From: Bacteroidota bacterium
Lineage (GTDB): Bacteria > Bacteroidota > Bacteroidia > AKYH767-A > 2013-40CM-41-45
Reading direction: 5' to 3'
DNA length: 64,000 nt
NCBI GenBank assembly: GCA_003151745.1
Contig: PLYJ01000069.1
Span: 13,270 to 77,269 of the forward strand
Shown here: piece by piece, positions 23,328-58,735 of the stretch
Layout of the letters: every line of letters starts with the position of its first letter
How positions within the stretch are numbered: the first letter of the stretch is position 1
Program-made: the position numbers and the translations under genes
Notes under the pieces: model-generated
Told to the model about the DNA's origin: nothing
Seen by the model: only the letters and a program-made list of their open reading frames with translations
The model's database searches: none

Positions 23328-23609
23328 GGTATCCAACCTTATTGAAATGGTATCCAAAATTAATAGTGTGGTATCCAACTCTATCAAAATGGTATCCAAT
23401 TTCAATGAAAAGGTATCCAAAAACAGTAAAATGGTATCCAATCTTGTTGAAATGGTATCCAAAATCAATGACTCGGTATCCAACGCTATCAAAACGGTAT
23501 CCAATTTCAATGAAACGGTATCCAAAGACAATAAAATGGTATCCAATTTTGTTGAAATGGTATCCAAAACTAATAGTGTGGTGTCCAACGTTGTGAAAAT
23601 GGTATCCAA
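23328..23609. repeat. Tandem array 1: 14 units of exactly 21 bp (core GGTATCCAA plus 12 variable nt), with a 105-bp higher-order period
   Basis: Cores lie at 23328 + 21n for n = 0 to 13 with no indel. The variable parts recur every 5 units. Confidence 0.95.
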
Positions 23610-23639
23610 TTTTGTTGGTAAAGAAGCATCAATTCAAAA

Positions 23640-25028
23640 ATGAGTTTTGAAAAAATAAATAACGTTTATTTCCTCGGCATCGGAGGCATTGGTATGTCTG
23701 CACTTGCGCGTTATTTCAAAGCGCAGGGCAAAATAGTTTCCGGTTACGACAAAACGCCTACCACGCTTACGGATGAATTAATTGCCGAAGGAATAAGCGT
23801 TCATTTTATTGACAGTATTGCGGTAGCGCAGCTTCAGACTTCCAATCTCAAAGACACAACATTGGTTATTTACACTCCCGCTGTTCCTAAAGATCTAATC
23901 GAGCTGAATTATTTTTTGAGCAATGGATTTGATGTGAAAAAGCGTTCGGAAGTGCTGGGCATGATTACAGAGAATCATTACACCATAGCGGTTGCAGGCA
24001 CTCACGGGAAGACCACCACATCCTCCATGATTGCTCATATATTAAAGCATTCAGGAACAGACTGCACGGCTTTTCTCGGAGGTATTGCAAAAAACTACGA
24101 TTCAAATTTCCTTTTAGGAAAGGGCAAAAAGAGTATTGTGGTGGTGGAAGCCGATGAATACGACCGTTCGTTCCTCACGCTTCATCCTGATGTGGCAGTA
24201 ATTACCTCCATGGATGCTGACCACCTTGATATATATGGTGATTCCGGCCAGTTGGTTGATTCGTACCGGTCCTTTGCAAAGCAATTGAAAAAAGGCGGAA
24301 TGCTTTTTTATAAATCGGGGTTGCAATTGGAAGACCTGGAGCTTGGCAAATCAACCTATTCTTTAACCGCGACAGCAGATTATTCGCCGAAGAATTTAAG
24401 GATTGAAAATCATCGTTATCATTTCGATTTCAAAAATACCGAAGACACGATCAAAGATATTTCTTCCCAATTAGCCGGAGCGCATAATGTGGAGAATGCT
24501 TTGGCTGCCATAGCCGTTGCGAAGCATATCGGCATTCCCAAAAACAAAATCAAAGAGGCATTGGAAACCTACACGGGGGTGAAGAGGAGATTTGATTACC
24601 AGGTTCAGCCGCCAACGAGCAATGTAGTTTATATTGACGATTACGCTCATCATCCTGAAGAGCTTCGGGCTTGCATCTCTTCTGCCCGTGAATTGTACCC
24701 GGGAAAGAAAATTACCGGCATCTTCCAGCCGCATCTATTCAGTCGCACACGGGATTTCGCCGAGGGTTTTGGACGCAGCTTGTCGCTGCTGGATGAGCTG
24801 ATTCTCCTCGATATATATCCCGCACGGGAGAAACCGATAGCGGGAGTTAACTCAGGAATGCTTTTAAAAGACGTAACCATAAAAAATAAAATGCCTTGCC
24901 GGAAAGAAGATGTGCTGGAGGAGCTGGAGAAAAGAAATATTGAAGTGCTGCTTACGCTTGGCGCAGGTGATATTGATACACTTGTTGTTCCGATAAGGCA
25001 TTATCTGATGAAAAAATATGCGAATTGA
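23640..25028 (+). CDS. murC: UDP-N-acetylmuramate--L-alanine ligase
   Basis: FLGIGGIGMSALA motif and GTHGKTTTSSM P-loop. Confidence 0.95.
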   Translation: MSFEKINNVYFLGIGGIGMSALARYFKAQGKIVSGYDKTPTTLTDELIAEGISVHFIDSIAVAQLQTSNLKDTTLVIYTPAVPKDLIELNYFLSNGFDVKKRSEVLGMITENHYTIAVAGTHGKTTTSSMIAHILKHSGTDCTAFLGGIAKNYDSNFLLGKGKKSIVVVEADEYDRSFLTLHPDVAVITSMDADHLDIYGDSGQLVDSYRSFAKQLKKGGMLFYKSGLQLEDLELGKSTYSLTATADYSPKNLRIENHRYHFDFKNTEDTIKDISSQLAGAHNVENALAAIAVAKHIGIPKNKIKEALETYTGVKRRFDYQVQPPTSNVVYIDDYAHHPEELRACISSARELYPGKKITGIFQPHLFSRTRDFAEGFGRSLSLLDELILLDIYPAREKPIAGVNSGMLLKDVTIKNKMPCRKEDVLEELEKRNIEVLLTLGAGDIDTLVVPIRHYLMKKYAN

Positions 25029-25040
25029 AACAATACTTGC

Positions 25041-25097
25041 CACAGATTCACAGATTTCATTCTTGCTATTTTTAAATAAATAATCTGTGAATCTGTC
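25041..25097. repeat. Intercistronic hairpin (murC|ftsQ)
   Basis: CACAGATTCACAGATT pairs with AATCTGTGAATCTGT around an AT-rich loop. Confidence 0.7.
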
Positions 25098-25115
25098 GCT
25101 ATAAAATGAAGTAGT

Positions 25116-25958
25116 ATGAAAAACAGGTTTAAACCCAGATTCAACATCAACTGGAAAAAGATTGCCCGCATCGGGCTATGGAGTTTGCTTGCCTTCGGGT
25201 TTATCGTATCCGTGGGCTTCACAAGCTATAAGCAGCGCATGATGGAGTGCAAGGCATTCGACATTTCCATTAACGACAGCACCTCCTATTCCTTTGTTGA
25301 GTATTCCGACATTGCCCAAATCATCAACGATAAGTTTGGCGGATTGGTTGGAAAGCCGATGGATGAAATTAACATCGCATTGTTGGAAAAAATCATAAAT
25401 AACAACCCTTTTGTATTGAATGCCGAAGTATTTTCAACGCTTGATGGAATTGTGAAGATTGAGGTAGCACAACGCAAACCCATTCTTAGAGTTTTTAATT
25501 ACAACAACGAAAGTTTCTATATAGACAACACCGGAAAATATATGCCGACTTCCCCTAAGTACACTGCAAGCGTGCCTGTAGCAAACGGTGCAATTGCAGC
25601 AAGAGAAAGCGACAGTCTGGCGTATGCGGGCGATGTTCCGGTAAATATAGACCAATCCGATACAAGCTTTCATCCCACAACGATGCAGAGTATTTATATG
25701 CTTGCAAAGTATATTAACAAGGATGATTTCTGGAGCGCACAAATAGAACAGCTATACGTCAACGAAAGCGGGGATATTGAATTGATTCCAAGAGTGGGCA
25801 ACCAGAAAATTATTTTTGGTGATGCCACACAGATGAAGGAGAAGTTCAACAAGCTTTTTATTTTATATACAAAAGGATTTGATAAGACCGGTTGGAATAA
25901 CTACAGCGTGATAAATTTAAAGTTCAACGACCAGGTCGTTTGTACAAAAATTAAATAA
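25116..25958 (+). CDS. ftsQ: Cell division protein FtsQ
   Basis: Position in the dcw cluster, with an N-terminal TM helix and a POTRA-like region. Confidence 0.8.
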   Translation: MKNRFKPRFNINWKKIARIGLWSLLAFGFIVSVGFTSYKQRMMECKAFDISINDSTSYSFVEYSDIAQIINDKFGGLVGKPMDEINIALLEKIINNNPFVLNAEVFSTLDGIVKIEVAQRKPILRVFNYNNESFYIDNTGKYMPTSPKYTASVPVANGAIAARESDSLAYAGDVPVNIDQSDTSFHPTTMQSIYMLAKYINKDDFWSAQIEQLYVNESGDIELIPRVGNQKIIFGDATQMKEKFNKLFILYTKGFDKTGWNNYSVINLKFNDQVVCTKIK

Positions 25959-25961
25959 CGA

Positions 25962-27272
25962 ATGGAAAAAGATAAAGCAGATTTAATAGTAGGATTAGAC
26001 ATCGGCACCACCAAGATATGTGCCATTGTGGGTCGTAAAAACTCTTTCGGCAAGATTGAAATACTTGGCATGGGTAAGAGCGAGTCAGTGGGTGTGATGC
26101 GCGGTGTGGTCACTAACATCGTCAACACGGTGCAATCCATTAAGCTGGCTGTGGATGAAGCGGGCAATAAGGCAAAGGTGGAAGTTCACAATGTGCATGT
26201 GGGCATTGCAGGACAGCACATTAAAAGCTTGCAGCATCGCGGCATGCGCACCCGCAACAGCATGGAAGATGAAATTAACCAGAAGGATATTGACATCATC
26301 GTAGAGGATATGTATAAAATAGCCATGCCTCCCGGCGAACAGATCATCCATGTAATACCGCAGGAATATATCGTTGACAGCGAACAGGGCTTAAAGGATC
26401 CCGTCGGTATGTCCGGCATTCGGTTGGAAGCTAACTGTCACATCATCACGGGGCAGATCAGCTCGATTAAGAATATATATAAGTGTGTGGACCGTGCAGG
26501 ATTGAAGACGGACGGACTTTTTCTGGAACCCCTTGCATCAGCTGAGTCGGTTCTTACTGATGAAGAAAAAGAAGCCGGTGTAGTGCTCGTGGATATTGGC
26601 GGAGGCACCACAGACATCGCCATCTTCCATGACGGCATCATTCGCCACACGGCAGTGATTCCCTTTGGCGGCAATGTGATCACAGAGGATATTAAAGAGG
26701 GCTGCAGCATTATTAAAAAGGATGCAGAGCAATTGAAAATAAAGTTCGGTTCAGCGCTGGCAAGTGAGAACCTGGAGAATGAATATGTGACCATTCCCGG
26801 ATTGCGCGGCAGGAAGCCCAGTGAGATTTCTGTGAAAAACCTTGCAAGCATTATCCAGGCAAGGATGGAAGAGATCATCGAGCAGGTAATTTATGAAATA
26901 AAAAATTCACGGTTCGAGAAGAAATTGATTGCAGGCATTGTCATTACAGGTGGCGGCGCACAGCTTAAGCATATCATCCAGTTAGTGGAATACCTGACAG
27001 GCATGGATGCACGCATCGGTTATCCCAATGAACATCTTGCAAAAGGAACGGATGAAGTTAAAAGCCCCATGTACGCTACCGCTGTAGGGCTTGTGATGAA
27101 AGGATTCCATGAACTGGAAAAGAACAAGAAAATTCCGCAGCTTGTTGTGGCAGGCAATGTCAACAAGAAGGAAAAAGTAAAAGAAGATGACAGGAAAGCA
27201 AAGCAGGACGAAAGCATCTTCAAGAGATTGAAAAATTGGTTTGAGGAGGTGGATGATCACGATTTAAAGTAA
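25962..27272 (+). CDS. ftsA: Cell division protein FtsA
   Basis: Actin-fold motifs GLDIGTTKICAIVG and VDIGGGTTDIAIF. Confidence 0.95.
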   Translation: MEKDKADLIVGLDIGTTKICAIVGRKNSFGKIEILGMGKSESVGVMRGVVTNIVNTVQSIKLAVDEAGNKAKVEVHNVHVGIAGQHIKSLQHRGMRTRNSMEDEINQKDIDIIVEDMYKIAMPPGEQIIHVIPQEYIVDSEQGLKDPVGMSGIRLEANCHIITGQISSIKNIYKCVDRAGLKTDGLFLEPLASAESVLTDEEKEAGVVLVDIGGGTTDIAIFHDGIIRHTAVIPFGGNVITEDIKEGCSIIKKDAEQLKIKFGSALASENLENEYVTIPGLRGRKPSEISVKNLASIIQARMEEIIEQVIYEIKNSRFEKKLIAGIVITGGGAQLKHIIQLVEYLTGMDARIGYPNEHLAKGTDEVKSPMYATAVGLVMKGFHELEKNKKIPQLVVAGNVNKKEKVKEDDRKAKQDESIFKRLKNWFEEVDDHDLK

Positions 27273-27351
27273 ATCTGTTTACAGTTCGCAACGCTATAAC
27301 CATAGACCATCAACAACAATTACATATACAACTAAATAAAAAGCAACACGC

Positions 27352-28860: not shown

Positions 28861-28861
28861 A

Positions 28862-28901: not shown

Positions 28902-28905
28902 AAAT

Positions 28906-29361: not shown

Positions 29362-29630
29362 ACGACATGTTCGGACTGGCAAGGTTAGTTTTGTTTGTTT
29401 TCATGTTGTAAGTTGTAACCCTATACCTTAACCGGTGCAAGGTTTTTTTCTCTCAAAAATGGCTTTTTTAACGGCTTATTGTCTCTTTTAGGGCTTTTTT
29501 TATAGTACACATGTCCTATTTTGTCCTATAAACATAGTTTTTGCGTAAACTTCATGAATTGCCTGGTTTACGTGGCAGTAATACCGATTTAAGTTTTCTT
29601 CAAACCCCTGAAAAAACACCCTCCGTTTTA

Positions 29631-29925
29631 ATGAAACGTTAGCGCATTTCGTCGTGGCGTGATCACACTTTGATGAAGCGTCAGGGTATTTCGGTGTGGT
29701 GTGATCATACTTCAATGAAACGTCAGAGCATTTCGATGTGATGCGATCACACTTTGATGAAACGTCAGAGCATTTCGGTGTGGTGTGATCACACTTCGAT
29801 GAAACGTCAGAGCATTTTGTCGTGGTGTGATCACACTTCGATGAAACGTCAGAGCATTTCGCCGTGATGTGATCAAACTTCAATGAAACGTTAGAGCATT
29901 TTGTTCTGGTGTTAGAGCATTTTTG
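29631..29925. repeat. Tandem array 2: 7 units of exactly 42 bp, each holding the perfect palindrome GTGTGATCACAC plus a GATGAAACGTCAGAGCATTTC module
   Basis: ATGAA(A/G)CG starts at 29631, 29673, 29715, 29757, 29799, 29841 and 29883, all 42 bp apart. Confidence 0.95.
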
Positions 29926-30611
29926 AGATGAATTGGCTTTTTTTAATGAAAAAAGGGGATTGTGTAATTACAACGCAATTATTTATCACCCAAAGACCTT
30001 GTGCTAAACTGCGCCGAGCAGGGATTTCTAAGGTTGTGGTGATTGGTATGATTTGGTTGGATGGGCGTAGTTGGCCTACACACATGCCAACCTTAGAAAC
30101 TACACCCAACGGGGTTTTAATTTGTACTGTTGCGTCTGCATCAGTAACTGTTGACTTGGCTCCGATGGAGAGGGAGGAAGAAAATAGAGAGACTTGTAGG
30201 ATGCAGGGCTTTTTTGGTTTAAGTGAATTTGGAAATTGGATTTATAATTAAAAGTTATACATTTGCTCATAATAATTATAAAAGAAAAGAAATGTAGAAA
30301 GTAAAAGATAAATAGAATTGCGTTAGCAATATTCTTGCTTAGAAAACAGCGAATTTTCAAACATGTCAAGAATAAGCGAAACGCCCATGCAATGCGTGGG
30401 CTTAGCTTATTTGACATGTGGGTGCTTCGCTGTACCTCTAAGCAGATGGCTAATGTCCCACGCAGTTTTTTTATATACCCATGAGAAAATCTTTAAAATA
30501 ATAAAGGAGTATCCTGAAAATCCTAAAACAGAGTAAGGCGCGTAAGCTGAAAAGCGAATGAGTAGGCAAATGAAAAATAATGTCCTAAACAATTTAAAAT
30601 CAAAAAAGAAA

Positions 30612-31124
30612 ATGAAAAAGAAAAATTTATTAATCGCGGTTTTCGTAGTCGCAACAGCAATGTTTAGCGGATGTGCTAAGGATGGCGCAACTGGACCACA
30701 AGGTCCGGCAGGAACTAATGGAAGTGCTAATGTTAATACTGCATTATTTAACGTAACCCCGGGGCAATGGAATAATCCTTCATCAGGGTATTATAATTTT
30801 GGGATAGCTGATGCAGATATTACAAATTCGGACAATGATGTGGTAATGGTTTACATGCTAAGCGGACAAACAGGTGGTAGTGATACTTGGGTTTCATTAC
30901 CAATATCCAATTGGTTTGTCAGCGGTGATGATATGTATTTTACATACTTTGGAAGTAGCAGTGCAGCAGGAGAAATAGCACTTTATTATAATAGTTCTTC
31001 GGCTCAGAGTTCAACGCTTACTTTCAAGGCGGTAGTTATTCCTCCTGCTGCACGAATGGCGAATACAAATGTAAATTTAAAAAACTATGAAGAAGTTAAG
31101 GCAGCATTTAATTTGCAAGATTGA
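30612..31124 (+). CDS. Lipoprotein with a short collagen-like G-X-Y run, hypothetical
   Basis: MKKKNLLIAVFVVATAMFSGC lipobox followed by GATGPQGPAGTNGSA (5 G-X-Y triplets). An upstream in-frame ATG at 30558 is possible. Confidence 0.6.
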   Translation: MKKKNLLIAVFVVATAMFSGCAKDGATGPQGPAGTNGSANVNTALFNVTPGQWNNPSSGYYNFGIADADITNSDNDVVMVYMLSGQTGGSDTWVSLPISNWFVSGDDMYFTYFGSSSAAGEIALYYNSSSAQSSTLTFKAVVIPPAARMANTNVNLKNYEEVKAAFNLQD

Positions 31125-31742: not shown

Positions 31743-31973
31743 ATGCAATACGGAGCCATCAACATTGATCCTGAAACAATGGGCGGAACAGCGGTTTTCA
31801 CCGGTACAAGAGTTCCCATCCAGGCAATCTTTGACTACATTGAAACAGGCGAAACATTAGAAGAATTTTTGGAAAATTTCCCAACTGTTTCCCACGAGCA
31901 AGCTCTTGAAGTTCTTGAAAAAGCAAAACGAAGCATAACATCAGAAAAGTTTTTGAATGAGAATTTTGCTTGA
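31743..31973 (+). CDS. DUF433 antitoxin-like protein
   Basis: IDPETMGGTAVFTGTRVPIQAIFDYIETGETLEEFLENFP is the typical DUF433 core. It overlaps the downstream partner. Confidence 0.8.
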   Translation: MQYGAINIDPETMGGTAVFTGTRVPIQAIFDYIETGETLEEFLENFPTVSHEQALEVLEKAKRSITSEKFLNENFA

Positions 31974-32283
31974 CGAAAACATTCCTGCTAAAGTCAAATC
32001 TGACTTTGGTAAAGACTTTGAGGTGAGAACTGTCAGAGATATGAGATGGTCTGGCAAAAAGAACGGAGAACTGCTTGGGCTTATTACATTTAATGGATTT
32101 GATTTTTTTATTACGCTTGATAAAAACCTGAAGCACCAGCAAAACCTTGCCAAATTTGATATAAAAATATTTATTCTGCTCGCGAAGGATAACAAACACC
32201 AGACGTTGCAGCCATTCATAGAGAAGGTGAAATATCTGCTAAAAAGTGAGGCATATAAAAAATTTAACGAAGTAGGGCTGTAG
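31957..32283 (+). CDS. DUF5615 (Mut7-C/PIN-like) toxin-like protein
   Basis: MRILLDENIP start with acidic residues of a PIN-like fold. Overlaps the DUF433 gene by 17 nt. Confidence 0.75.
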   Translation: MRILLDENIPAKVKSDFGKDFEVRTVRDMRWSGKKNGELLGLITFNGFDFFITLDKNLKHQQNLAKFDIKIFILLAKDNKHQTLQPFIEKVKYLLKSEAYKKFNEVGL

Positions 32284-32319
32284 CAAAAAACGGAAGATGA
32301 ACATCACATAAAAAGTTCA

Positions 32320-32547
32320 TCAGGCAACGTGTTTCAGGTTAGAGCCGGAAGTAAGAAGTTTTGCATATTGAAGGCAGGCAAGAATATCTTCCTTTTCGAG
32401 TTCAGGATGATCTGCAAGAATCTGTTGGATGGTCATCTCGGATGAAAGCATGTCAAGAATCACTTCTACAGGCCATCGCATACCTCTGATGCTTGGTTTG
32501 CCGTGACAGATTTCCGGTTGAATAGTTATTCTCTCAAGATAATTCAT
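32320..32547 (-). CDS. DUF433 protein without an adjacent partner
   Basis: ITIQPEICHGKPSIRGMRWPVEVILDMLSSEMTIQQILADHPELEKEDILACLQYA. The ATG at 32547 is preferred over the longer ORF. Confidence 0.75.
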   Translation of the reverse strand: MNYLERITIQPEICHGKPSIRGMRWPVEVILDMLSSEMTIQQILADHPELEKEDILACLQYAKLLTSGSNLKHVA

Positions 32548-32632
32548 AGTTATTCTTTGATTGCTCAAATTTACGTTATTCCTTCCGAAACTCAAACTAA
32601 AGGAAATTAAATGACGCTGGTATAGGCATAAG

Positions 32633-35371: not shown

Positions 35372-36709
35372 TTATTCGGGATGATTTTCTTTTAAAATGT
35401 TGTTTATTTTTTCAATAAAGGGTGCAAAGGAAGCACTTTTTTCGGGATATAGCAAGGTCAATCTTTCATAGCAGGAACGGGCTTTTGGATAGTTTCCCTG
35501 ATCAAAATAGATGCGGGCAAGTGTTTCGGAGATAATGTCTTCATTATCAATAATGCTCTGCCTTGCCATGTTGGCAGGAGAATAGAATTCAGTCTTTGGG
35601 GGAGCTATTCTTGGGGCTGCAGCGATGAATTTATCAATTAAAGCCCCCCTATCCCCCGAAGGGGGGGAGATAATTTCATCTTTTCGATTATAATCGGATG
35701 AAAGCGGTTCGTCTTTAACTTCTTCAACTGTTGTATGTCCACCACTCTTCCGTTTTAACCAATCTATAAAGGAGATGGCTCCCCCACCCCCCAAAGGGGG
35801 GACTGGCTCCGAAGCTTTATTCAAGTCGGCTTCCCCCCTTTGGGGGGCGGCGGGGCTTATCTCAGGCAACTTTTCTAATTCCTGTAAATAGTTTTCTTCA
35901 ATGATGGTTTCTATTTCAAGGCCTTCTATCTCATCCATCGGTTCTGCGGGTAACTTATCGAGAACGGAATGTGTAGTTGATTCTTCCTCCTTGACGACAG
36001 GTAACTCTGCGGTAGCAACCTTTTCTTCTTTTACTTCTTCCTTGCTGCTGATTGCTTTTTCAATAGTTGGAGGAATTGCTTCAGAAATTATTTCCTGTTC
36101 CGCAGGTTTATTCTTTGCAAGAATTTCACTTAGCCGCCTGCGGATTATTTCTTCATTGGTGGTTGCAGGTTCATCAAAGGCAGGTGTTAAAGGTTCAGCG
36201 ACACTTTTCTTTTCTTCAATTATTTTTTCTTGCTGAATTTCGGGTTCTTCCCTGTATTTCGATTCAGGTTCAACGGCTGTTGTATTTTCTCTAAATGAAG
36301 AAGTATTTTCTTTGATTTCAAAAGCAGGTGTTTCAATTGACTCTTCGCTTTCTGATGAAAGTGCAAATTGTTTGTCTGACAATACTTCACTTGATTTAAA
36401 GGATGATTCTTGACTTAAAGGTTGTTTTTGTTCAATAACAAAAACATTGCTTTCCTCATCCGCTGTTTGCTTTGTAGTTTCATCATTGATAAGATGAAAC
36501 AACACTTTACGGTCAGCAGCATAAGCCGATGCTGTTTTTAATTCTGAATGAAAATGAATGCTTCCCTGGTTGTGAAAGCTCTTCGCCAATAATAACCGTG
36601 TAGTCTGGAAATAAGGAAACGTGCGGACAATATCCCACAATTCGGAAGTTTCTTCTTTTGAAGAGGTGCCTTTATTTTCTATCAATTTAATTAAACGCTG
36701 TCTTTCCAA
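35372..36709 (-). CDS. Hypothetical protein with a conserved N- and TPR-like C-terminus and an acidic low-complexity middle
   Basis: 445-aa ORF in the secG-lptE neighbourhood. The C-terminus LARIYFDQGNYPKARSCYERLTLLYPEK is TPR-like. The middle carries GC-palindrome insertions. Confidence 0.65.
   Translation of the reverse strand: MERQRLIKLIENKGTSSKEETSELWDIVRTFPYFQTTRLLLAKSFHNQGSIHFHSELKTASAYAADRKVLFHLINDETTKQTADEESNVFVIEQKQPLSQESSFKSSEVLSDKQFALSSESEESIETPAFEIKENTSSFRENTTAVEPESKYREEPEIQQEKIIEEKKSVAEPLTPAFDEPATTNEEIIRRRLSEILAKNKPAEQEIISEAIPPTIEKAISSKEEVKEEKVATAELPVVKEEESTTHSVLDKLPAEPMDEIEGLEIETIIEENYLQELEKLPEISPAAPQRGEADLNKASEPVPPLGGGGAISFIDWLKRKSGGHTTVEEVKDEPLSSDYNRKDEIISPPSGDRGALIDKFIAAAPRIAPPKTEFYSPANMARQSIIDNEDIISETLARIYFDQGNYPKARSCYERLTLLYPEKSASFAPFIEKINNILKENHPE
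35787..35847. repeat. Bipartite GC palindromic element inside the CDS (CCCCCCAAAGGGGGG ... CCCCCCTTTGGGGGG)
   Basis: Two perfect C6-N3-G6 hairpins at 35787-35801 and 35833-35847. A third related site is at 35646-35668. All are read through in frame (PVPPLGGGGA, APQRGEA, SPPSGDRGA). Confidence 0.85.
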
Positions 36710-37283: not shown

Positions 37284-37343
37284 GTTTGAAGTTTTAAGTT
37301 CGAGGTTTGAGGTTACGTAACTTCAAACCACAAACCACAAACC
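37284..37343. repeat. Hairpin with GTTTGA(A/G)G-type arms, related to 19151-19215
   Basis: GGTTTGAGGTT-ACGT-AACTTCAAACC core. The left arm GTTTGAAGTTTTAAGTTCGAGG resembles the left arm of the murD|ftsW hairpin. Confidence 0.7.
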
Positions 37344-38574: not shown

Positions 38575-38585
38575 CTCTTAAATAA

Positions 38586-38647
38586 TTTCGGATTTCGGAT
38601 TTTTGATTTCGGATTGAAAGCGCTGCTAATCTGCAATCAACAATCCT
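38586..38647. repeat. Imperfect hairpin with TTTCGGA / repeat arms
   Basis: TTTCGGATTTCGGATTTTTGATTTCGGATTG partly pairs with AATCTGCAATCAACAATCC. Confidence 0.5.
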
Positions 38648-38656
38648 CTTCTTAGT

Positions 38657-38977: not shown

Positions 38978-40528
38978 TTATTTTACTGCTTCACCCATCA
39001 ACGTAGCCTTCGTGCAATCCGTTACCAATACATTGACGTAATCACCCGGTTTATATTGTTCTCTCGGAAAGATTACTACTTTATTCTGATCGTTTCTTCC
39101 TGAAAGATGCTTGTCCGATCTTTTTGAAACAGCATCAGCCAGCACGCGAGTCACTTTATTCAAATCTTTCAGATTGCTTCTGTGAGAAAGGTTTGATTGA
39201 AGATCAATGATCTCCTGCAATCGTCTTGCTTTCACTTCTTCGGGAATATCATCTTTAAATTTTCGTGCTGCATGAGTACCCGGTCTCTCCGAATATTTGA
39301 ACATATAGGAATATTCAAACCCCGCCCAATCCATCAGCGAAAGAGTTTCCCGATGTTCTTCTTCCGTCTCGCTGCAAAAGCCTGTAATGATGTCGCTTGA
39401 AATGCCGCAATCAGGAATGATATTGCGAATAGATTCAATTCGCTTCATATAATCTTCTCTTGAATATCCTCGATTCATATTTTCAAGCACAACGCTGCTG
39501 CCTGATTGCACAGGCAGGTGAACATAGTTGCATATATTATCGTATTTCGCGATCAGGTGCAATACCGCATCTGTCATGTCACGCGGATTGGAAGTGGAGA
39601 AGCGCACACGCAGCTCAGGATTAACTTTTGCAACCATCTCCATCAGGTCAGCAAATGTGATGAAATTCTTTTGTTCTTTTTCAGGAAGCCGATGATTCAT
39701 GGCTGCATGAATAACATCCTGCGGTAAATCTTTTTTTGCACCTCCTCCTGACTGCGCCTTCGCGTAGCCCTTATATTTTTCATTTTCTTCCATTGTTGCT
39801 TCGGCGAAGCGAGGCCATAAATAAGAATCCACATTCTGCCCCAGCAAAGTCACTTCTTTATATCCATCCACAAAAAGCTGCTGTGCTTCATTAACTATTG
39901 ATTGCGGATCGCGGCTCCGTTCTCTTCCGCGTGTAAAAGGAACCACACAGAATGAACACATATTATCACATCCCCGTGTAATAGATATAAATGCAGAAAT
40001 ACCATTGCTGCCAAGCCGCACAGGGCTTAACTCAGCATACGTCTCTTCCAGCGACAAAATAACATTCACTGCCTTTTGTCCCGTTTCTACTTTAGCTATC
40101 AGGTTCGGAAGATCACGGTAAGCATCAGGCCCGACGACAATATCAACCAGCTTTTCCTTTTCAAGCAAAGTTGTTTTCAATCGTTCAGCCATGCAGCCAA
40201 GCACGCCGATAATGAGGTCGGGCTTCTTTCTTTTCTTCGCTCTGAAATCTTTGAGCCGCGCCCAAATTTTTAATTCCGCATTATCTCTTATAGCGCAGGT
40301 GTTGAGGAAAATCACATCGGCATCATCGGTTGTATTTGTTGTTTGAAAACCAATGCCTGTCATGATACTCGCTATAATCTCACTGTCTGAAAAATTCATG
40401 GCGCAGCCATAACTCTCAATGTAGAAAGCCCCCCTTTCCCCCAAAGGTGGGTGATGACTTTCATGCGGGCTTAGTCCCGCACGTGCGGGATTGGGGGAGG
40501 CTTCTATATTATTTTCTTCAAATGACAT
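38978..40528 (-). CDS. miaB: tRNA-2-methylthio-N6-dimethylallyladenosine synthase
   Basis: [12 protein letters not shown]-terminal cluster region, radical-SAM [11 protein letters not shown], and a TRAM C-terminus. ATG 40528 is chosen. An alternative TTG lies at 40444 inside the palindromic element. Confidence 0.9.
40427..40503. repeat. GC palindromic element in the miaB 5' end
   Basis: GCCCCCCTTTCCCCCAAAGGTGGG ... TCCCGCACGTGCGGGA-TTGGGGGAGGCTT. The tail matches the AGCCTCCCCAA flank of the copies at 28862 and 56906. Confidence 0.8.
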
Positions 40529-40659
40529 ATTAAAACCCTCTTTTAAAGGGCTTGCAAAGATAAAGGTTGTCGGCACTTTTTGACAATTTGGCAGAAAAAA
40601 ATGGAAAGGGTGTCATTATGGCAAATACTTGGATATGTATAGAAAGTAAAACCATGCAT

Positions 40660-40833
40660 GCGGTACACTTTACCGTGGTGGCGGTAAACCTTACCGTGAT
40701 GGCGGTAAACCTTACCGCGATGGCGGTACACTTTACCGTTGTGACGGTAAACCTTACCGCGATGGCGGTAAACCTTACCGTGGTGGCGGTAAACCTTACC
40801 GTTGTGGCGGTAAACCTTACCGTGATGGCGGTT
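40660..40833. repeat. Tandem array 3: ~8.3 units of 21 bp, each holding the palindrome CGGTAA-ACC-TTACCG
   Basis: GGCGGTAAACCTTACCG(T/C)G(A/G)T is repeated head to tail with no indel. Confidence 0.95.
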
Positions 40834-40900
40834 TAATATACCTAAATGCCCTTTTTAAGTGTTTTTTGCACATTTATGCCATTTTCATGCCTTTTGTTAT

Positions 40901-40971
40901 CTACGAATACGAATAGTTACGAATTACGAATGGCAGCCCATTCGTATATTCGTATTGATTCGTATTCGTAG
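40901..40971. repeat. Near-perfect 33-bp-stem hairpin with TACGAAT heptamer arms
   Basis: CTACGAATACGAATAGTTACGAATTACGAATGG pairs with CCATTCGTATATTCGTATTGATTCGTATTCGTAG. Confidence 0.9.
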
Positions 40972-41118
40972 ATGAAAAGAATTATTCCGAAACCAACCGT
41001 TTTTGATACATCACCCTTTTTTGTTATTCAAAAGATAACCCTCATGAGTTTTTGAAAACTTATCGGGCGTTTTGTATTTAATAAAAGATGAAGTTCTAAA
41101 TATCTCTACGTTTGTGAT

Positions 41119-41157
41119 TGTAACTCCGACGAAGTTTGGAACTTCGTCGGAGTTTAG
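41119..41157. repeat. Full TGTAAC-prefixed hairpin element
   Basis: TGTAAC-TCCGACGAAGTTTGGAACTTCGTCGGA-GTTTAG, with a perfect 11-bp stem. Confidence 0.85.
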
Positions 41158-41268
41158 TTTTCATGACGGTGTGCCTTCTGCCATGGTTTCTATTACGCTG
41201 GCTGCATAAACTTTTTTGTTATTCAATAGGAAACCCTGATGGCGAAAGCTGTCGGGGTTTTGCTTTAT

Positions 41269-41308
41269 TGTAACCTCCCCGAAGTTTGGAACTTCGGGGA
41301 GGTTGGGA
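41269..41308. repeat. Full TGTAAC-prefixed hairpin element (compensated variant)
   Basis: TGTAAC-CTCCCCGAAGTTTGGAACTTCGGGGAG-GTTGGG. Stem changes relative to 41119 are compensatory (GACG/CGTC to CCCG/CGGG). Confidence 0.85.
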
Positions 41309-42667: not shown

Positions 42668-42901
42668 ATGGAGCAACTAACGGATCGAATTACCATTGAT
42701 GAAACCATTTGTAATGGTAAACCCACGATAAGGGGTAAGCGAATTACTGTTCAAACAATTCTTGAATTTTTAAGCGCCGGAGATTCGGCAGAAGATATAC
42801 TTAAGCAATATCCGTCTCTTGAATTATCTGATATAAAAGCATGTCTTGTTTTTGCCGCCGAGATGATGAACAGAGGTTTTAGCTTTAAAACGGTTGCCTG
42901 A
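42668..42901 (+). CDS. DUF433 antitoxin-like protein
   Basis: ITIDETICNGKPTIRGKRITVQTILEFLSAGDSAEDILKQYPSLELSDIKACLVFA. Confidence 0.85.
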   Translation: MEQLTDRITIDETICNGKPTIRGKRITVQTILEFLSAGDSAEDILKQYPSLELSDIKACLVFAAEMMNRGFSFKTVA

Positions 42902-43242
42902 TGCCGAAGTTTTTAATTGATGCCAACCTGCCCTATCGTTTCAGCTTGTGGCATGATGAAGATTTTATTCACCTCAAAAACATTGATGATGGCTGGTCAG
43001 ATAAAAAAGTATGGGGTTATGCGCGGGAGAATAATATGACCATTATTACTAAGGACGCTGATTTTTCTGCAAGGATGATTCTTGCAAAACCTCCTCCTAA
43101 AGTTATTCATCTCCGAATCGGAAATATGAAAATGAATGATCTTCACTCGTTCCTGAACAAAAACTGGAAAAATATTCTTGCTTTTCATCAGGTATCTAAA
43201 TTAGTGAATGTTTACAACGACAGGATAGAAGCAATTCAATAA
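42901..43242 (+). CDS. DUF5615 (PIN-like) toxin-like protein
   Basis: The start overlaps the upstream stop (ATGA-type coupling). FLIDANLP start and D-rich PIN-like signature. Confidence 0.8.
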   Translation: MPKFLIDANLPYRFSLWHDEDFIHLKNIDDGWSDKKVWGYARENNMTIITKDADFSARMILAKPPPKVIHLRIGNMKMNDLHSFLNKNWKNILAFHQVSKLVNVYNDRIEAIQ

Positions 43243-50575: not shown

Positions 50576-50581
50576 TTAAAA

Positions 50582-50645
50582 GCGTTATATGTTATATGTT
50601 AAACGTTATTAGGAATAATGCCGTATAACGATTAACATATAACTT
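50582..50645. repeat. Hairpin with GTTATAT-type arms
   Basis: GTTATATGTTAAACGTTAT pairs with GTATAACGATTAACATATAAC. Confidence 0.7.
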
Positions 50646-50658
50646 TTAACTTGATTCT

Positions 50659-51948: not shown

Positions 51949-51953
51949 TTTTT

Positions 51954-52033
51954 AATAAGTAATAATGAAAAAGGAAAAAGGAATAAAAGTCGCTCATTGA
52001 GCTTTATTCATTAGTCCTTATTATTTATTCATT
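51954..52033. repeat. Hairpin with AATAAG/GAATAA-type arms, paralog of 56169-56249
   Basis: AATAAGTAATAATGAAAAAGGAAAAAGGAATAAAAG pairs with CTTTATTCATTAGTCCTTATTATTTATTCATT. Both arms align with those of 56169-56249. Confidence 0.8.
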
Positions 52034-53741: not shown

Positions 53742-53797
53742 CTTTAAGATTTAAATTGTAAGATTTAAGCTGTAAGATAAAATCGATGCGTATGCGA

Positions 53798-54778: not shown

Positions 54779-54785
54779 ATATTTC

Positions 54786-54853
54786 GGTTTAAAGTTCAAC
54801 GTTTAGGGTTTAAAGGTATGAATCAGCACTACCTTAAACCTTAAACCTTAAAC
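54786..54853. repeat. Hairpin with GGTTTAA-type arms
   Basis: GTTTAGGGTTTAAAGGTA pairs with TACCTTAAACCTTAAACCTTAAAC. Confidence 0.75.
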
Positions 54854-56163
54854 TATTTCACAATTTCTCTTCCAATGCTATTATAATAAAATCCAAGCTC
54901 TTTCATCTGCACGGTATCATAAAGATTACGTCCGTCGAATATGACTTTACTTTTTAATAGCAATAACATTTTGTCAAAGTCAGGCGTGCGAAACAATGCC
55001 CATTCTGTAGCAATGAGTAATGCATCAGCGCCCGGTAACGCTTTATACGGATCAGCTGTATAATCAATTTTGTCACCGATAGCAAGCTTCACATTTTTCA
55101 TTGCTTCCGGATCGTAAGCGGAAATGCTTGCGCCCTCCTTTAGTAAGGCATCAATAATATATAATGAAGGAGCTTCACGAACATCATCCGTATCAGGCTT
55201 GAATGAAAGACCCCAGAGAGCAAATCTTTTTCCTTTCAGATTTCCGTTGTAATAGTTTTTTATCTTATCTACCAGAACTAACTTTTGTTTCTCATTCACT
55301 TCCATGACCGATTTCAAAAGCTTGAAATCATATTTGTAATCGTTCGCCGTTCTTTCCAGCGCCTGCACGTCTTTAGGGAAGCAGCTTCCGCCGTAGCCAA
55401 TACCCGCAAAGAGGAAGCGTTTGCCAATACGCGCATCGGAACCCACGCCTACACGAACCATATCCACGTTAGCACCTACAAGCTCGCAGAGGTTAGCAAT
55501 CTCATTCATGAACGTGATTTTGGCTGCAAGAAAAGAATTAGCCGCATATTTGGTGAGCTCTGCAGAGCGTTCATCCATGTGATAAACAGGATTGCCCTGG
55601 CGGACGAAAGGAGCAAAGAGCTCACCCATGATCTTTCCTGCTTTCTCCGAACTGCTTCCTATCACTACACGGTCAGGCTTCATAAAATCATCCACTGCAT
55701 AGCCTTCACGCAGAAACTCAGGATTGCTCACTACATCAAACTCCACTTTGCAATGTTTCGCAATTGCATTTTTTACTTTCTCGGCAGTGCCCACAGGAAC
55801 AGTGCTTTTATTCACCACCACCTTGTATTCTTTAATAAGAGAGCCAAGCTCTTCCGCTACCTGCAAAATATGTTTCAGATCAGCAGAGCCGTTTTCATCA
55901 GGTGGCGTAGGCAAGGCAAGGAAAATGACTTTTGCATCGCGGATGCCTTCTTCCAAAGAAGTGGTGAACTTCAGACGGCGTTGCTTTATGTTTCGCTGAA
56001 ACAAACCATCCAGGTGTGGTTCGTAAATCGGTATCTCACCATTCTGCATCTTCTGCACCTTGGCTTTGTTATTGTCCACACATACAACATGCACACCGGT
56101 TTCGGCAAAGCATGTGCCTGTTACTAATCCAACGTATCCGGTTCCTACAACGGCAATGTTCAT
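54853..56163 (-). CDS. ugd: UDP-glucose 6-dehydrogenase
   Basis: VVGTGYVGLV start and catalytic region GYGGSCFPKD. Confidence 0.92.
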   Translation of the reverse strand: MNIAVVGTGYVGLVTGTCFAETGVHVVCVDNNKAKVQKMQNGEIPIYEPHLDGLFQRNIKQRRLKFTTSLEEGIRDAKVIFLALPTPPDENGSADLKHILQVAEELGSLIKEYKVVVNKSTVPVGTAEKVKNAIAKHCKVEFDVVSNPEFLREGYAVDDFMKPDRVVIGSSSEKAGKIMGELFAPFVRQGNPVYHMDERSAELTKYAANSFLAAKITFMNEIANLCELVGANVDMVRVGVGSDARIGKRFLFAGIGYGGSCFPKDVQALERTANDYKYDFKLLKSVMEVNEKQKLVLVDKIKNYYNGNLKGKRFALWGLSFKPDTDDVREAPSLYIIDALLKEGASISAYDPEAMKNVKLAIGDKIDYTADPYKALPGADALLIATEWALFRTPDFDKMLLLLKSKVIFDGRNLYDTVQMKELGFYYNSIGREIVK

Positions 56164-56168
56164 ATCGT

Positions 56169-56249
56169 AATAAGTAAAAATGAATAAGGAATAAGGAATA
56201 AAAAGTAAAACATTGCTCTTTATTAATTATTACTTATTCATTATTCATT
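56169..56249. repeat. Hairpin with AATAAG/GAATAA-type arms, paralog of 51954-52033
   Basis: AATAAGTAAAAATGAATAAGGAATAAGGAATAAAAAG pairs with CTCTTTATTAATTATTACTTATTCATTATTCATT. Confidence 0.8.
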
Positions 56250-57447
56250 TTAAAAACTCAAGTACTGAATCCACAATATACTTCAATGTATCTTCATCCA
56301 ACTCCGTATGCATGGGCAGTGAGATCACACTCTTGCAAAGCATTTCAGTAACCGGAAAATCACCTTCCTTATAACGCGGATCAGGAAATGCTTTCTGCAT
56401 GTGCAATGGCACAGGATAATAGATCATGGCAGGAATTTCTTTTGATGCAAGAAACTCACGCAGCCTGGTGCGGTCAGCATTTTTAAGAACAAGCGTATAT
56501 TGATGAAACACATGATCTGAATAAGAAGCATGCTTCGGCGTAACGATCTTAGGATGATTTGCAAATGCCTTATCATAATAGTCTGCTGCCTTGCGGCGGG
56601 CTGCTGCATATTCATCTAAATGACGAAGCTTGATGCGAAGAATAGCCGCTTGCAAACTATCCAGTCGTGAGTTTACTCCAATCTCATCATGATAATATTG
56701 CACGCTTTGCCCATGATTAGCTACCATGCGCGCCTTCTTTGCCAAAGCATCATCGTTTGTATATAGCGCTCCGCCGTCACCATAGCATCCAAGGTTCTTA
56801 GAAGGAAAGAAAGAAGTGCATCCTACTGTGCCAATTGTTCCCGCTTTGGCCCCTCTGCCCCCCAAAGGGGGGTGCTGCATCACAATTTCATTTGAGGATT
56901 GCGCGGTGGAAAGCCCCTCCTTTGGAGGGGTTGGGGAGGCTGAATAATAATTCGCTCCTATTGCCTGCGCCACATCTTCAATCACTGCCAGATTATGCTT
57001 CTTCGCAATCTTCATGATGGCATCCATATCAGCACATTGCCCGAAGAGATGAACAGGAACAATGGCTTTTGTCTTGGGAGTAATTGCAGCCTCAATAGCT
57101 TTCGGATCAATGCAAAAAGTATCAGGCAGCACATCCACCAGCACAGGCTTCAGCTTTAATAAAGCAATCACTTCAGCAGTGGCAACATACGTAAAGCTGG
57201 CAGTAATCACTTCATCACCCGGTTGAAAGCCCAATGCCATCATGGCAATTTGCAGCGCATCGGTTCCATTGGCGCAAGGGATAACATGCTTCACGCCAAG
57301 ATATTTTTCAAGCTCAGATTGAAAGTTCTTTACTTCAGGTCCGTTAATGAAGGCTGTGGAATGAATCACATCAAGCACAGCCTTATCTATCTCTGGTTGA
57401 ATTTTCTGGTATTGGGCTGCCAGGTCAACCATCATTATTTTCTTCAT
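56245..57447 (-). CDS. DegT/DnrJ/EryC1/StrS-family aminotransferase, WbpE-like, carrying an in-frame ~32-aa insertion
   Basis: MVDLAAQYQKIQPEID start, NGTDALQIA, PLP-lysine region TSFFPSKNLGCYGDGGA, and NSRLD. ATG 57447 is chosen. The longer ORF to 57693 crosses a hairpin and a divergent promoter. Confidence 0.9.
   Translation of the reverse strand: MKKIMMVDLAAQYQKIQPEIDKAVLDVIHSTAFINGPEVKNFQSELEKYLGVKHVIPCANGTDALQIAMMALGFQPGDEVITASFTYVATAEVIALLKLKPVLVDVLPDTFCIDPKAIEAAITPKTKAIVPVHLFGQCADMDAIMKIAKKHNLAVIEDVAQAIGANYYSASPTPPKEGLSTAQSSNEIVMQHPPLGGRGAKAGTIGTVGCTSFFPSKNLGCYGDGGALYTNDDALAKKARMVANHGQSVQYYHDEIGVNSRLDSLQAAILRIKLRHLDEYAAARRKAADYYDKAFANHPKIVTPKHASYSDHVFHQYTLVLKNADRTRLREFLASKEIPAMIYYPVPLHMQKAFPDPRYKEGDFPVTEMLCKSVISLPMHTELDEDTLKYIVDSVLEFLK
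56850..56945. repeat. Bipartite GC palindromic element inserted in frame in the aminotransferase gene
   Basis: CCCCCCAAAGGGGGG (56858-56872), then a spacer, then CCCCTCCTTTGGAGGGG-TTGGGGAGGCT (56914-56941). It encodes SASPTPPKEGLSTAQSSNEIVMQHPPLGGRGA. Confidence 0.85.
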
Positions 57448-57481
57448 CTCGCTAAAAATCGGATGCGAAGATAAATATTTA

Positions 57482-57571
57482 GGTTTACGGTTTACGGGTT
57501 TACTGTTTACTATTTGGCGTTTAATTACTTTTGTCCCGTTGAAGATGAGAACTGTAAACTGTAAACCGGAA
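57482..57571. repeat. Inverted GTTTAC(G/T)-heptamer arms straddling a divergent promoter region
   Basis: GGTTTACGGTTTACGGGTTTACTGTTTAC pairs with GTAAACTGTAAACCGGAAATCGTAAAC. The right arm lies inside the first codons of 57545-58348. Confidence 0.7.
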
Positions 57572-58348
57572 ATCGTAAACTTCTCAAGAGGTATCGCACA
57601 GGTCGTGACGCTCTCTGTCTTTCTTTTCTGCTTCAGCGCAAGCCATGCGCAGTATAGCGTCAAGGACAGCACCATCCATTTTTTCATGATCACGCCTTCG
57701 TTTGCTTACCAAATACCGGGCGCCGATCTGGCAAAGCGTTATGGAAATAATTTAAATGTGGGCGGCAGCATTGCATATAAAAGCAAAACCAACTGGATCA
57801 TTGGCGTGGAAGGCTATTTTATTTTCGGCAACGACATTCGCGAAAGCGGCATCTTTGACAGCATCAGCACTAACCAGGGATATATTCTTGGCACAGGCGG
57901 CACGTATGCAGATGTTCGCACGTACGAGCGCGGCTATCATTTCAGTGTTAAAGCAGGAAAAGTATTTCCTGTGCTGCATCCTCCCAATAAAAATTCAGGC
58001 GTTCTTGTTACAGGCGCTGTTGGTTTTCTTCAGCATAAAATACGGATTGAAACTCCCTCCGGCGATGCTCCGCAATTGAGCGGGGCCTATGCAGAGGGTT
58101 ACGACAGGCGCACCAACGGCGTTTCCATCACCGAGTTTTTAGGCTATCAATACCTGAGCAATCACAGTCTCATTAACTTTTTTGGCGGCTTTGAGTTTGT
58201 ACAGGCGTTTACGCAAAACAGGCGCAGCTATAATTTCGACACCATGATGCAGGACACTTCCAAGCGTTTCGACACGTTGAACGGCATTCGAGTCGGCTGG
58301 ATTTTTACCATCTATCAGCGCAAGCCGAGGGAGGTTTATTACAATTGA
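57545..58348 (+). CDS. Hypothetical outer-membrane beta-barrel-like protein
   Basis: Signal peptide ending SASHAQ, alternating beta-strand-like pattern, and C-terminal aromatic residues. Confidence 0.55.
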   Translation: MRTVNCKPEIVNFSRGIAQVVTLSVFLFCFSASHAQYSVKDSTIHFFMITPSFAYQIPGADLAKRYGNNLNVGGSIAYKSKTNWIIGVEGYFIFGNDIRESGIFDSISTNQGYILGTGGTYADVRTYERGYHFSVKAGKVFPVLHPPNKNSGVLVTGAVGFLQHKIRIETPSGDAPQLSGAYAEGYDRRTNGVSITEFLGYQYLSNHSLINFFGGFEFVQAFTQNRRSYNFDTMMQDTSKRFDTLNGIRVGWIFTIYQRKPREVYYN

Positions 58349-58557
58349 GCTTTGAATTGAGATTTTTAATGATTTTTATAGGACATTGACCTATTTTGTC
58401 CGATATAATGTCCTTATCTCAGCAATTGTACTTTCACATCTGTGACAATTTTATCGGTTTTTCGCCCCATTTTGTCGTTTCCTACGCTCAAACATCCATT
58501 TTTTTGATTAGAAAACGCATTTTTATCCAATATCAACTCAAAAAAGGAAGGTACAAT

Positions 58558-58735
58558 TATAAATTTTACCTTCCTTTTTACTAATTCTACCCTCCCTTTT
58601 ATAAATTCTACCTTCCTTATTTGTAATTCTACCTTCCCTTTTACAAATTGTACCGACCCTTTCAGTAATTGTACCTTCCCTTTTTATGAATTCTACCTTC
58701 CTTATTTATAATAATACCTTCCTTTTTTGATCTGT
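58558..58735. repeat. Tandem array 4: 8 units of 21 bp (one is 22 bp) with core TACC(T/C)TCC, preceded by one inverted unit
   Basis: Cores lie at 58579, 58600, 58621, 58642, 58663, 58684, 58706 and 58727. An inverted GGAAGGTA sits at 58558-58565. Confidence 0.9.

Follow-up and report, generated by a model that had tools for sequence, protein, structure and literature searches.

The arrays and their surroundings

The window analysed here, a 64-kb stretch (64,000 nucleotides) of contig PLYJ01000069.1 from a Bacteroidota bacterium, corresponds to positions 13388-77387 of an 83-kb metagenome contig (ENA ERZ27254241, k141_1416022) of an uncultured Bacteroidota lineage. Among the genes of the window are the dcw cluster, ftsA/Z, yqeY, groES/EL and miaB, together with a polysaccharide cluster and a number of small accessory genes. 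Four tandem arrays of short units, termed A1 to A4, lie in its non-coding gaps. They were detected with Tandem Repeats Finder (TRF) and by printing the units one by one in register, and both procedures confirm the period of 21 or 42 bp that a first-pass annotation of this DNA had claimed for all four. The gaps that hold them, as delimited by the gene calls, are the largest of the window (470, 1250, 848 and 553 bp), in agreement with their earlier description as oversized. Three of the arrays lie upstream of gene starts, as had also been stated: 30 bp from murC, 131 bp from miaB and 174 bp from the gene at 58902. The arrays are as follows.

23316..23609, Array 1 (A1), 14 x 21 bp units, seen by TRF and register printing
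29631..29912, with a degenerate tail to about 29925, Array 2 (A2), 6.5-6.7 x 42 bp units
40660..40832, Array 3 (A3), 8.2 x 21 bp units
58562..58728, Array 4 (A4), about 8 x 21 bp units, AATTCTACCTTCC...
58538..58564, inverted single copy of the A4 unit at the left edge of A4

The A1 unit is composed of a 9-bp core, GGTATCCAA, and a 12-bp variable linker. The core is unchanged in 13 of the 14 units, and the nine invariant columns are clustered beside twelve highly variable ones (permutation p=0.0002). Five units together make a higher-order repeat of 105 bp, and the array ends 30 bp before the murC ATG (23640). Each A2 unit contains the 12-bp palindrome GTGTGATCACAC. Since the lag-21 identity within A2 is 0.47, against a background of 0.24 +/- 0.07, the 42-mer can be taken as two diverged 21-mers; the array is flanked by yqeY (end 29361) and a lipoprotein gene (start 30612). 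In A3 a 15-bp palindrome, CGGTAA-ACC-TTACCG (CGGTAAACCTTACCG), alternates with a 6-bp linker, and the miaB start (40528, minus strand) is 131 bp downstream. A4 contains a single 22-bp step, at 58666-58688, which is the only one, as had been counted before, and the start of the DUF4412/GLPGLI gene (58902) follows 174 bp downstream. The inverted copy of its unit forms with the last unit (58704-58730) a 27-nt inverted repeat that is 93% complementary, and with the first unit an 18-nt hairpin followed by a U-run.

The period of the arrays

To describe the period lock, the window was scanned for periods 4-69. Long arrays were found only at periods of 21, 42 or 63, and A1-A4 are the sole long minisatellites of the window. 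The core motifs occur 11-17 times, compared with 0.6-4.3 expected in shuffled sequence; the excess lies essentially all within the arrays, and no dispersed operator copies of the cores were found elsewhere in the 64 kb beyond chance. A fifth array of the same kind is present upstream of miaB in contig L211, and A1-A4 are counted together with it as the five clade arrays. It can be seen that these five contain one indel only, and that the register is perfect over 14 units in A1 and in the L211 array despite about 35% divergence between units.

As a comparison set, about 2 Mb of other Bacteroidota loci were searched for arrays of at least 4 copies with a unit of at least 9 bp. The periods obtained were 9, 9, 9, 10, 10, 12, 14, 15, 15, 26 and 111, so that multiples of 21 make up 0/11 there against 5/5 in the clade (Fisher ~2e-4). 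The clade holds no long arrays of 14, 28 or 35 bp, and the only 21-bp exception among the fetched Bacteroidota loci is L211, which belongs to the closest relative of the window. The excess of period 21 over other periods, a check proposed with the first-pass annotation, is therefore present within the examined loci, which cover 83 kb of this genome and the ~2 Mb of other loci. Taken together, the period lock is real, non-random and clade-specific.

The segment 23090-24094, which comprises A1 and its flanks, was also compared with an independent JGI contig, L259. The two are 99.8% identical without gaps and show zero differences within the array, and A1 is therefore not hypervariable. An assembly artefact (MEGAHIT, k=21) is ruled out by the divergence of the units, by the identical A1 in L259, and by the origin of L211 in a separate assembly.

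Other arrays were noticed in the fetched loci. Contig L045 (CALPKO020000022.1), which bears the label Bdellovibrio sp. ZAP7 and is probably mis-binned, has a gene for a MurC of Bacteroidota type (53% identity) and an array of 21 bp x 3.6. Arrays with palindromic cores occur in L261 (6418-6674, 26 bp x 9.9, GAGACGCAAGATGTTGCGTCTTTGTT, a terminator-like hairpin plus T-run) and in intergenic DNA of Marinifilum (L021 16592-16696 and L026 16668-16777, units of 35/42 bp, TCCTGCAAGCTGCAGGA...).

Predicted curvature

A period of 21 bp corresponds to two turns of B-DNA, and it had been proposed earlier that phased units would serve protein binding or intrinsic curvature. Curvature was calculated with a wedge model of the DNA trajectory with Bolshoy parameters, and the numbers are approximate. 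In this model random genomic 21-mers placed in tandem are curved, with a mean ratio of end-to-end distance to contour of 0.80, whereas 18-, 19-, 23- and 24-mers are straight (0.96-0.99). The arrays are predicted to fall within the top 0.8-5% of 168-bp windows for curvature, and all of the 15 windows with the strongest curvature in the 64 kb are placed in the gaps of A1, A2 and A4. The possibility that the units are optimised for curvature was not supported, as the real units do not exceed shuffled ones in the model. It suggests that curvature would be a generic outcome of the period and not of unit design. Thus helical phase fits the period best (5/5 multiples of 21, none at 14, 28 or 35, and a wedge model that favours 21-mers), while a special curvature of the units themselves was not supported.

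The array loci in relatives

The nearest GTDB species representatives have MurC proteins of only 63-65% identity. Closer sequences are found on short contigs: the closest MurC (91% identity) on the 3.9-kb contig L084, and the closest MiaB (84% at the amino acid level) on the 3.1-kb contig L211. Sister material occurs in ERZ27252316 and in JGI 3300037258 and 3300050016.

Upstream of miaB, L211 carries a 21-bp array of at least 13 units, the contig beginning inside the array. Its unit, TCTTTGATCAAAGA plus 7 variable bp, has no sequence relation to the A3 unit, which is CGGTAAACCTTACCG plus 6 bp. As in A1, the core of the L211 unit is constant and its linker variable; the L211 core is palindromic. 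The stretch of about 100 bp that leads from the array to the miaB ATG is conserved between the window and L211, and the homology stops where the arrays begin. This comparison indicates that place, period and architecture (palindromic core plus variable linker) were kept at miaB while the sequence was replaced. From the sequences compared, spacing rather than sequence seems to be conserved at this site. In more distant relatives (73%) a divergent TonB_C gene lies 130 bp from miaB, and one of them carries CATTCTA x4.7 there.

At the other loci the arrays coincide with changes of gene order. In L084 murG directly abuts murC, and the 2.1 kb between these genes in the window are for this reason a lineage-specific insertion:

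21511..23639, plus strand, lineage-specific insertion between murG and murC, with a PLD-family nuclease gene (21558-22493), a lipoprotein gene (22576-23169) and A1

This junction of the dcw cluster appears as an insertion hotspot, as a 69% relative has an ORF6N-domain gene there (L085 9547-9999) while the 91% relative is empty. The yqeY gene and the groEL block are directly adjacent in L261 and are separated by A2 in the window. For the DUF4412 gene, the best homologue reaches only 55% identity and lies on a contig without an array. Thus all four arrays are situated at insertions or synteny breakpoints.

Sequences flanking the arrays

The flanks of the arrays contain the following promoter-like features.

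29497..29530, plus strand, 34-bp block upstream of A2, TTTTTATAGTACACATGTCCTATTTTGTCCTATA, homologous to the block upstream of A4
58373..58405, plus strand, homologous block upstream of A4, TTTTTATAGGACATTGACCTATTTTGTCCGATA
40529..40626, minus strand, miaB upstream region, conserved with L211, holding the -7 box TATCTTTG (40555-40562) of Bacteroidetes type
58774..58781, plus strand, candidate -7 box TAAGTTTG between A4 and the 58902 gene, a consensus match only

The blocks upstream of A2 and A4 align with a score of 41, against a null maximum of 32. The earlier statement that the arrays share no sequence thus stands for the units, which are unrelated, and not for this significant common block of 34 bp. 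By its sequence, the A2 block may be read as a sigma-70-like promoter, AGTACA-17-TATAAA, directed into the array; the A4 block has a corresponding match, AGGACA-18-TATAAT (10/12), in the same sense. In the JGI metagenome collection the leader block had no match. Between array and gene, candidate -7 boxes (TAnnTTTG) are present at A3/miaB, where the box is kept in L211, and at A4/58902. Adjoining A3, a 31-nt inverted repeat (40894-40978, 84% complementary) is built of TACGAA/TTCGTA hexamer-heptamer repeats.

Coding capacity, RNA and mobile elements

Twenty-one bp also equal 7 codons, and heptad-repeat micro-ORFs (small open reading frames) had been considered before. This possibility fails for A4 and the L211 array, which contain stop codons in all six frames, and it was concluded from these stops that the arrays are not protein-coding heptad repeats. 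A1, A2 and A3 can be read through in open frames, and on both strands several frames are open simultaneously. In A1 the core is constant even at synonymous positions, while other codons vary freely, and the stop codon of the A1 open frame overlaps the murC ATG, as ATGA. Gene callers annotate two of the arrays as proteins, of 105 aa (23326-23643, A1) and 72 aa (40618-40836, A3), and such spurious entries are present in public protein collections.

At the RNA level, folding z-scores were -4.6 for A4 and -3.5 for A2. Rfam covariance models gave no match on the arrays at gathering score, and at the E-value threshold only chance-level miRNA models; no tRNAs were found in the window. A near-threshold DUF805b RNA motif (30504-30539, plus strand; 34.8 bits with the gathering score at 35.6; E=4e-6) lies just upstream of the lipoprotein gene 30612-31124.

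The spacing of the repeats agrees with that of iterons (21.0 bp in A1, A3 and A4; 2x21 in A2). A plasmid or phage iteron origin was nevertheless rejected, as the genes beside the arrays include no Rep gene, the IMG/VR scans gave no meaningful match, and the context is chromosomal (dcw, groEL, miaB). The genes flanking the arrays encode the PLD nuclease, lipoproteins, YqeY, MiaB, a protein resembling outer membrane proteins, a receiver-only response regulator and the DUF4412 protein; searches with Pfam, NCBIfam and PADLOC found no Rep or winged-helix family among them. No DNA-binding gene adjoins any array, no protein family is common to the array neighbours, and the 64-kb window contains no LytTR gene. 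Scans of the IMG/VR viral collection with the array cores returned single chance matches or none. An oriC-like cluster of DnaA boxes, suggested by the likeness of the A1 core to TTATCCACA at 6-7 of 9 positions, was rejected too: dnaA, dnaN and par genes are missing, and the GC skew merely follows gene orientation.

Terminal inverted repeats were not detected round A1-A3, the best flank-to-flank inverted matches being 17-20 against a null 95th percentile of 24. The sole array with an inverted repeat is A4, where it is built from the array's own unit. No second copy of any array unit was found in the 83 kb, in the other fetched loci or in IMG/VR. A classical MITE (a miniature transposable element bounded by inverted repeats) was rejected because A1-A3 lack terminal inverted repeats. 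A guide array of the CRISPR type (clustered regularly interspaced short palindromic repeats) or the TIGR type (tandem interspaced guide RNA) was rejected as well: the "spacers" of A1 recur as the 105-bp higher-order repeat, at 9 bp for the repeat and 12 bp for the spacer the unit is much too short, and there is no cas- or tas-like gene.

Heptamer repeats in the window and in other Bacteroidota

Repeats of period 7, which the first-pass annotation did not mention, are numerous in the window: there are 9 of them, compared with 0 at periods 4-6 and 8-9. In the other Bacteroidota loci period 7 accounts for 105 of ~150 repeats of at least 4 copies, against 14 at period 6 and 16 at period 8. Heptamer arrays reach 43 copies there (L048 2789-3087), and murC neighbourhoods dominated by heptamers include L004, L048, L052, L055 and L067. 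In L004 the heptamer arrays form 21-bp higher-order repeats. Within A1-A4, identity at lag 7 and lag 14 is at background level, and no 21-bp arrays were found in the other heptamer-rich Bacteroidota.

Heptamers are also found in long hairpins, which occupy short intergenic gaps at 16441-16502, 19151-19216, 37284-37343, 38585-38650 and 50584-50650, and further at 51953-52030, 54800-54853, 56169-56253 and 57478-57581; the murE/mraY and murD/ftsW gaps of the dcw operon are among these sites. The arms are runs of a heptamer that differs from site to site, and the stems are segmented every 7 nt. In 7 of 8 tested hairpins the RNA folding z-scores were between -2.6 and -8.2, and in most they were -3.5 to -8. 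We know of no description of such heptad-segmented hairpins.

According to PMC4679880, no long simple repeats are commoner in prokaryotes than those of heptanucleotides, which have been reported in Bacteroidetes. The heptamer bias and the idea of polymerase slippage were already published (Mrazek 2007, summarised in that paper). The dominance of heptamer repeats across Bacteroidota is thus already known, and what is limited to this clade is the long 21-bp array.

Hairpins and insertions near the arrays

Compared with the 84% relative, the N-terminal 30 residues of MiaB are replaced by a G+C-rich palindromic stretch (CCCCCAATCCCGCACGTGCGGG...TTTGGGGGAAAGGGGGG, 40440-40515, codons ~6-34). Further within miaB (39752-39814, codons 239-259) lies an in-frame insertion of 63 bp (21 aa) with small palindromes. 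These two changes resemble in-frame insertions of palindromic elements, and a GGGGG/CCCCC hairpin similar to the palindromic stretch of miaB is located at 35644-35665. Two or three gene pairs of the toxin-antitoxin-like DUF433/DUF5615 kind occur in the accessory DNA beside A2 and A3 (31744-32600, 42668-43242).

Two perfect hairpins with 15-bp stems (41122-41154 and 41272-41304) have the loop and stem base GAAGTT-TGG-AACTTC in common and differ by compensatory changes deeper in the stem (CCGAC vs CCCC). The pair lies within a ~150-bp tandem duplication (~41000-41305) beginning TTTTTTGTTATTCAA, and a partial copy is seen at ~23183-23203. They could be elements like repetitive extragenic palindromes, terminators, or a pair of small RNA genes.

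Interpretation of the arrays

Tentatively, we favour the possibility that the arrays are minisatellites of fast turnover constrained by helical phase, which would act on double-stranded DNA upstream of promoters through curvature, through protein binding on one face, or both. They might originate where insertion or rearrangement junctions offer new, permissive intergenic DNA, through local tandem duplication, and their unit length would then be held at two B-DNA turns (21.0 bp, with multiples of 42, 63 and 105). Each unit would set the same short motif, often a small palindrome, on one face of the helix, and the motifs on that face may produce a planar bend, a one-sided platform on which a protein of loose sequence preference would bind cooperatively, or both. 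The site of action would be just upstream of the promoter of the next gene (murC, miaB and the 58902 gene). Selection may act on phase, and the effect may be on promoter architecture, as activation, insulation or silencing. In this reading the function is inferred, while the arrays themselves, their period lock, their non-coding nature, their position near promoters and the retention of place and period at miaB with change of sequence are observed.

A number of observations weigh against this reading. Between A2 and the next gene start there are ~690 bp. In the wedge model the curvature of the real units does not exceed that of shuffled ones. Detection by TRF favours indel-free arrays, and the examined part of this genome amounts to 83 kb, including the window. 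The number 21 is 3x7 in a genome rich in 7-nt repeats, and the L211 unit has an internal heptamer substructure (P=0.008) and can be read as three TCnnnnn heptamers. In relatives, A1 is absent from L084 although its MurC is 91% identical; at the A4 locus the DUF4412-BNR gene pair is retained with a 78-bp gap, a different upstream gene and no array; and no array was found at miaB in relatives of 77% MiaB identity or less. From these absences it follows that any function of the arrays is dispensable and recent. Finally, all the arrays are within junction DNA, where neutral repeats could simply build up. It had been said in advance that absence or random placement in close relatives would count against a common element, and here the outcome is mixed, with A1 and A4 absent and the position of A3 kept.

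The main alternative, which appears rather unlikely, is that the arrays are a functionless by-product of replication slippage or unequal exchange biased in this clade to multiples of 7 nt, the 21-mers being three-heptamer higher-order units that accumulate only in long, unconstrained intergenic stretches such as rearrangement scars. The predominance of heptamers among repeats of at least 4 copies, both in Bacteroidota loci and in the window, argues for it, as do the published heptamer bias with its slippage idea (Mrazek 2007 via PMC4679880), the 21-bp higher-order repeats of L004, the TCnnnnn structure of the L211 unit, the CATTCTA x4.7 repeat at the miaB position of a 73% relative, and the breakpoint location of all four arrays together with the absence of A1 and A4 in relatives. 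On this account, however, long arrays of 14, 28 and 35 bp would be looked for in the clade, a lag-7 or lag-14 signal in A1-A4, and 21-bp arrays in other heptamer-rich Bacteroidota, and none was seen; nor would uniform decay be expected to give the constant core and variable linker of A1, or an independent array at the same site in two species. If the step of 21 bp is instead imposed by a clade-specific, sequence-independent molecular ruler, which we consider quite unlikely, two forms may be imagined. In one, a DNA-binding or architectural protein that polymerises with a two-turn footprint would select any in-phase repeat upstream of promoters, and the repeats would be to bacteria what nucleosome-phased satellites are elsewhere. 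The other form supposes an enzyme of recombination or transposition whose cuts are staggered by 21 bp and which would leave ladders of target duplications by repeated insertion and excision at rearrangement junctions. Either form would explain the unrelated units, the exact period, the breakpoint location and the replacement of units between sister species. Sites of sequence-specific regulators, each array being the multi-site operator of its own protein and the spacing deriving from the geometry of one family, iteron- or LytTR-like, are unlikely. LytTR regulators are numerous in Bacteroidota. With its 9-bp core and 12-bp spacer A1 has exactly the geometry published for LytTR sites (PMC2766830), A2, A3 and L211 have palindromic cores that resemble dimer operators, and the arrays lie upstream of candidate promoters; yet the A1 core is unlike the LytTR consensus, no DNA-binding gene lies next to the arrays, the cores do not occur elsewhere in the 64 kb beyond chance, 8-14 sites are far above the usual 2-3, and unrelated cores stand at the same promoter in sister species.

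A role in transcribed form is likewise unlikely; the repeats would then belong to long 5' leaders or to small RNAs, serving as hairpin arrays, protein sponges or stability elements, and would be driven at A2 and A4 by the shared promoter-like block. That block reads as a -35/-10 promoter into the arrays, the palindromic units of A4 and A2 fold, the inverted and first units of A4 would make an 18-bp hairpin before a U-run, and the near-threshold DUF805b motif lies downstream of A2. On the other hand it is not obvious what a 21-nt period would mean for RNA, A3 is upstream of the conserved -7 box of miaB, no Rfam family matches the arrays, and a sigma-70-type consensus is not the main Bacteroidota promoter type. 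It is very unlikely that each array belongs to a multi-copy genomic family of MITE-like mobile elements bearing minisatellites, as BrickBuilt does. BrickBuilt is intergenic, 49-591 nt from genes, and has promoter activity (PMC4596501), and the insertions and breakpoints at the arrays, the 27-nt inverted repeat that brackets A4 and the leader common to A2 and A4 are in line with such elements. But A1-A3 are without terminal inverted repeats, the searches for a second copy of a unit and for the leader were negative in the collections named above, and the unit differs at each locus whereas BrickBuilt is one family. Heptad-repeat micro-ORFs, finally, are hardly credible: the open frames of A1, A2 and A3, the called products of 105 and 72 aa and the ATGA overlap with murC speak for them, while the stops in all six frames of A4 and the L211 array, the 22-bp step of A4, which breaks the frame, and the invariance of the A1 core at synonymous positions with other codons free speak against, and simultaneous open frames on both strands are typical of stop-free repeats.

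If the favoured helical-phase reading holds and geometry, not sequence, is conserved, the arrays would be a clean bacterial case of a DNA element, regulatory or architectural, that helical phase alone defines. An element of this sort, renewed by fast turnover, would escape searches by sequence homology. The old puzzle of why bacterial repeats prefer certain unit lengths (7 nt, and here 21) would become testable with this material, since heptamer hairpins and 21-bp arrays stand side by side in one genome and three related lineages have at miaB, respectively, 7-mers and two different 21-mer arrays. In practice, these arrays break short-read assemblies and get called as genes.

Comparison with known systems

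The arrays involve known kinds of sequence, namely bacterial minisatellites and phased, iteron-like arrays of binding sites, and the unusual feature is geometry that is conserved without sequence. No described class of 21-bp bacterial arrays was found in the literature, which agrees with the earlier statement that no such element class is known in Bacteroidota; the statement has to be qualified by heptanucleotide repeats (PMC4679880), by BrickBuilt (PMC4596501) and by the 21-bp geometry of LytTR sites (PMC2766830).

The binding sites of LytTR proteins (AgrA/AlgR/ComE) are 9-bp direct repeats with 12-bp spacers (PMC2766830). They are like the present arrays in this 21-bp geometry upstream of promoters, to which A1 corresponds exactly with 9 + 12, and a paralogous family would explain different sequences at equal spacing. 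They are unlike them in having 2-3 repeats, against 8-14 here, and the cores of A2, A3 and L211 are palindromic. BrickBuilt of Porphyromonas gingivalis is a 23-nt intergenic minisatellite inside a MITE (PMC4596501). Both are intergenic minisatellites of Bacteroidota within a few hundred bp of genes and with promoter-related flanks, and A4 has inverted ends; however, BrickBuilt is one family with 19 copies per genome and a 23-nt unit, whereas here each array has its own unit of 21 bp. With the heptanucleotide long simple sequence repeats (LSSR) and the cyanobacterial short tandemly repeated repetitive (STRR) sequences such as TAACTGA repeats (Mrazek 2007 via PMC4679880), the arrays have in common an intergenic location and the recurrence of a length class and not of a sequence. 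They differ from them in that the units of A1-A4 are 21 or 42 bp without internal 7-bp periodicity.

Iterons of theta-replicating plasmids are direct repeats of 17-22 bp at ~21-22 bp spacing. The arrays resemble them in the spacing of about two turns with sites on one side, in sequence differences from array to array, and in a constant core with a variable spacer. Unlike iterons, they have neither a Rep gene nor an AT-rich or DnaA-box origin context, and they gave no match to a plasmid or phage; the copy numbers of 8-14 are high, and the location is chromosomal, upstream of housekeeping genes. The sopC centromere of the F plasmid consists of 12 x 43 bp with an inverted repeat in each unit, a form comparable to A2 with its 42-bp units each holding a 12-bp palindrome, but partition genes are missing here. 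Lastly, phased A-tracts make curved DNA upstream of bacterial promoters, and the arrays are similar to these as helically phased upstream DNA, with the difference that curvature here would come from the exact tandem repetition of arbitrary units and not from A-tracts alone.

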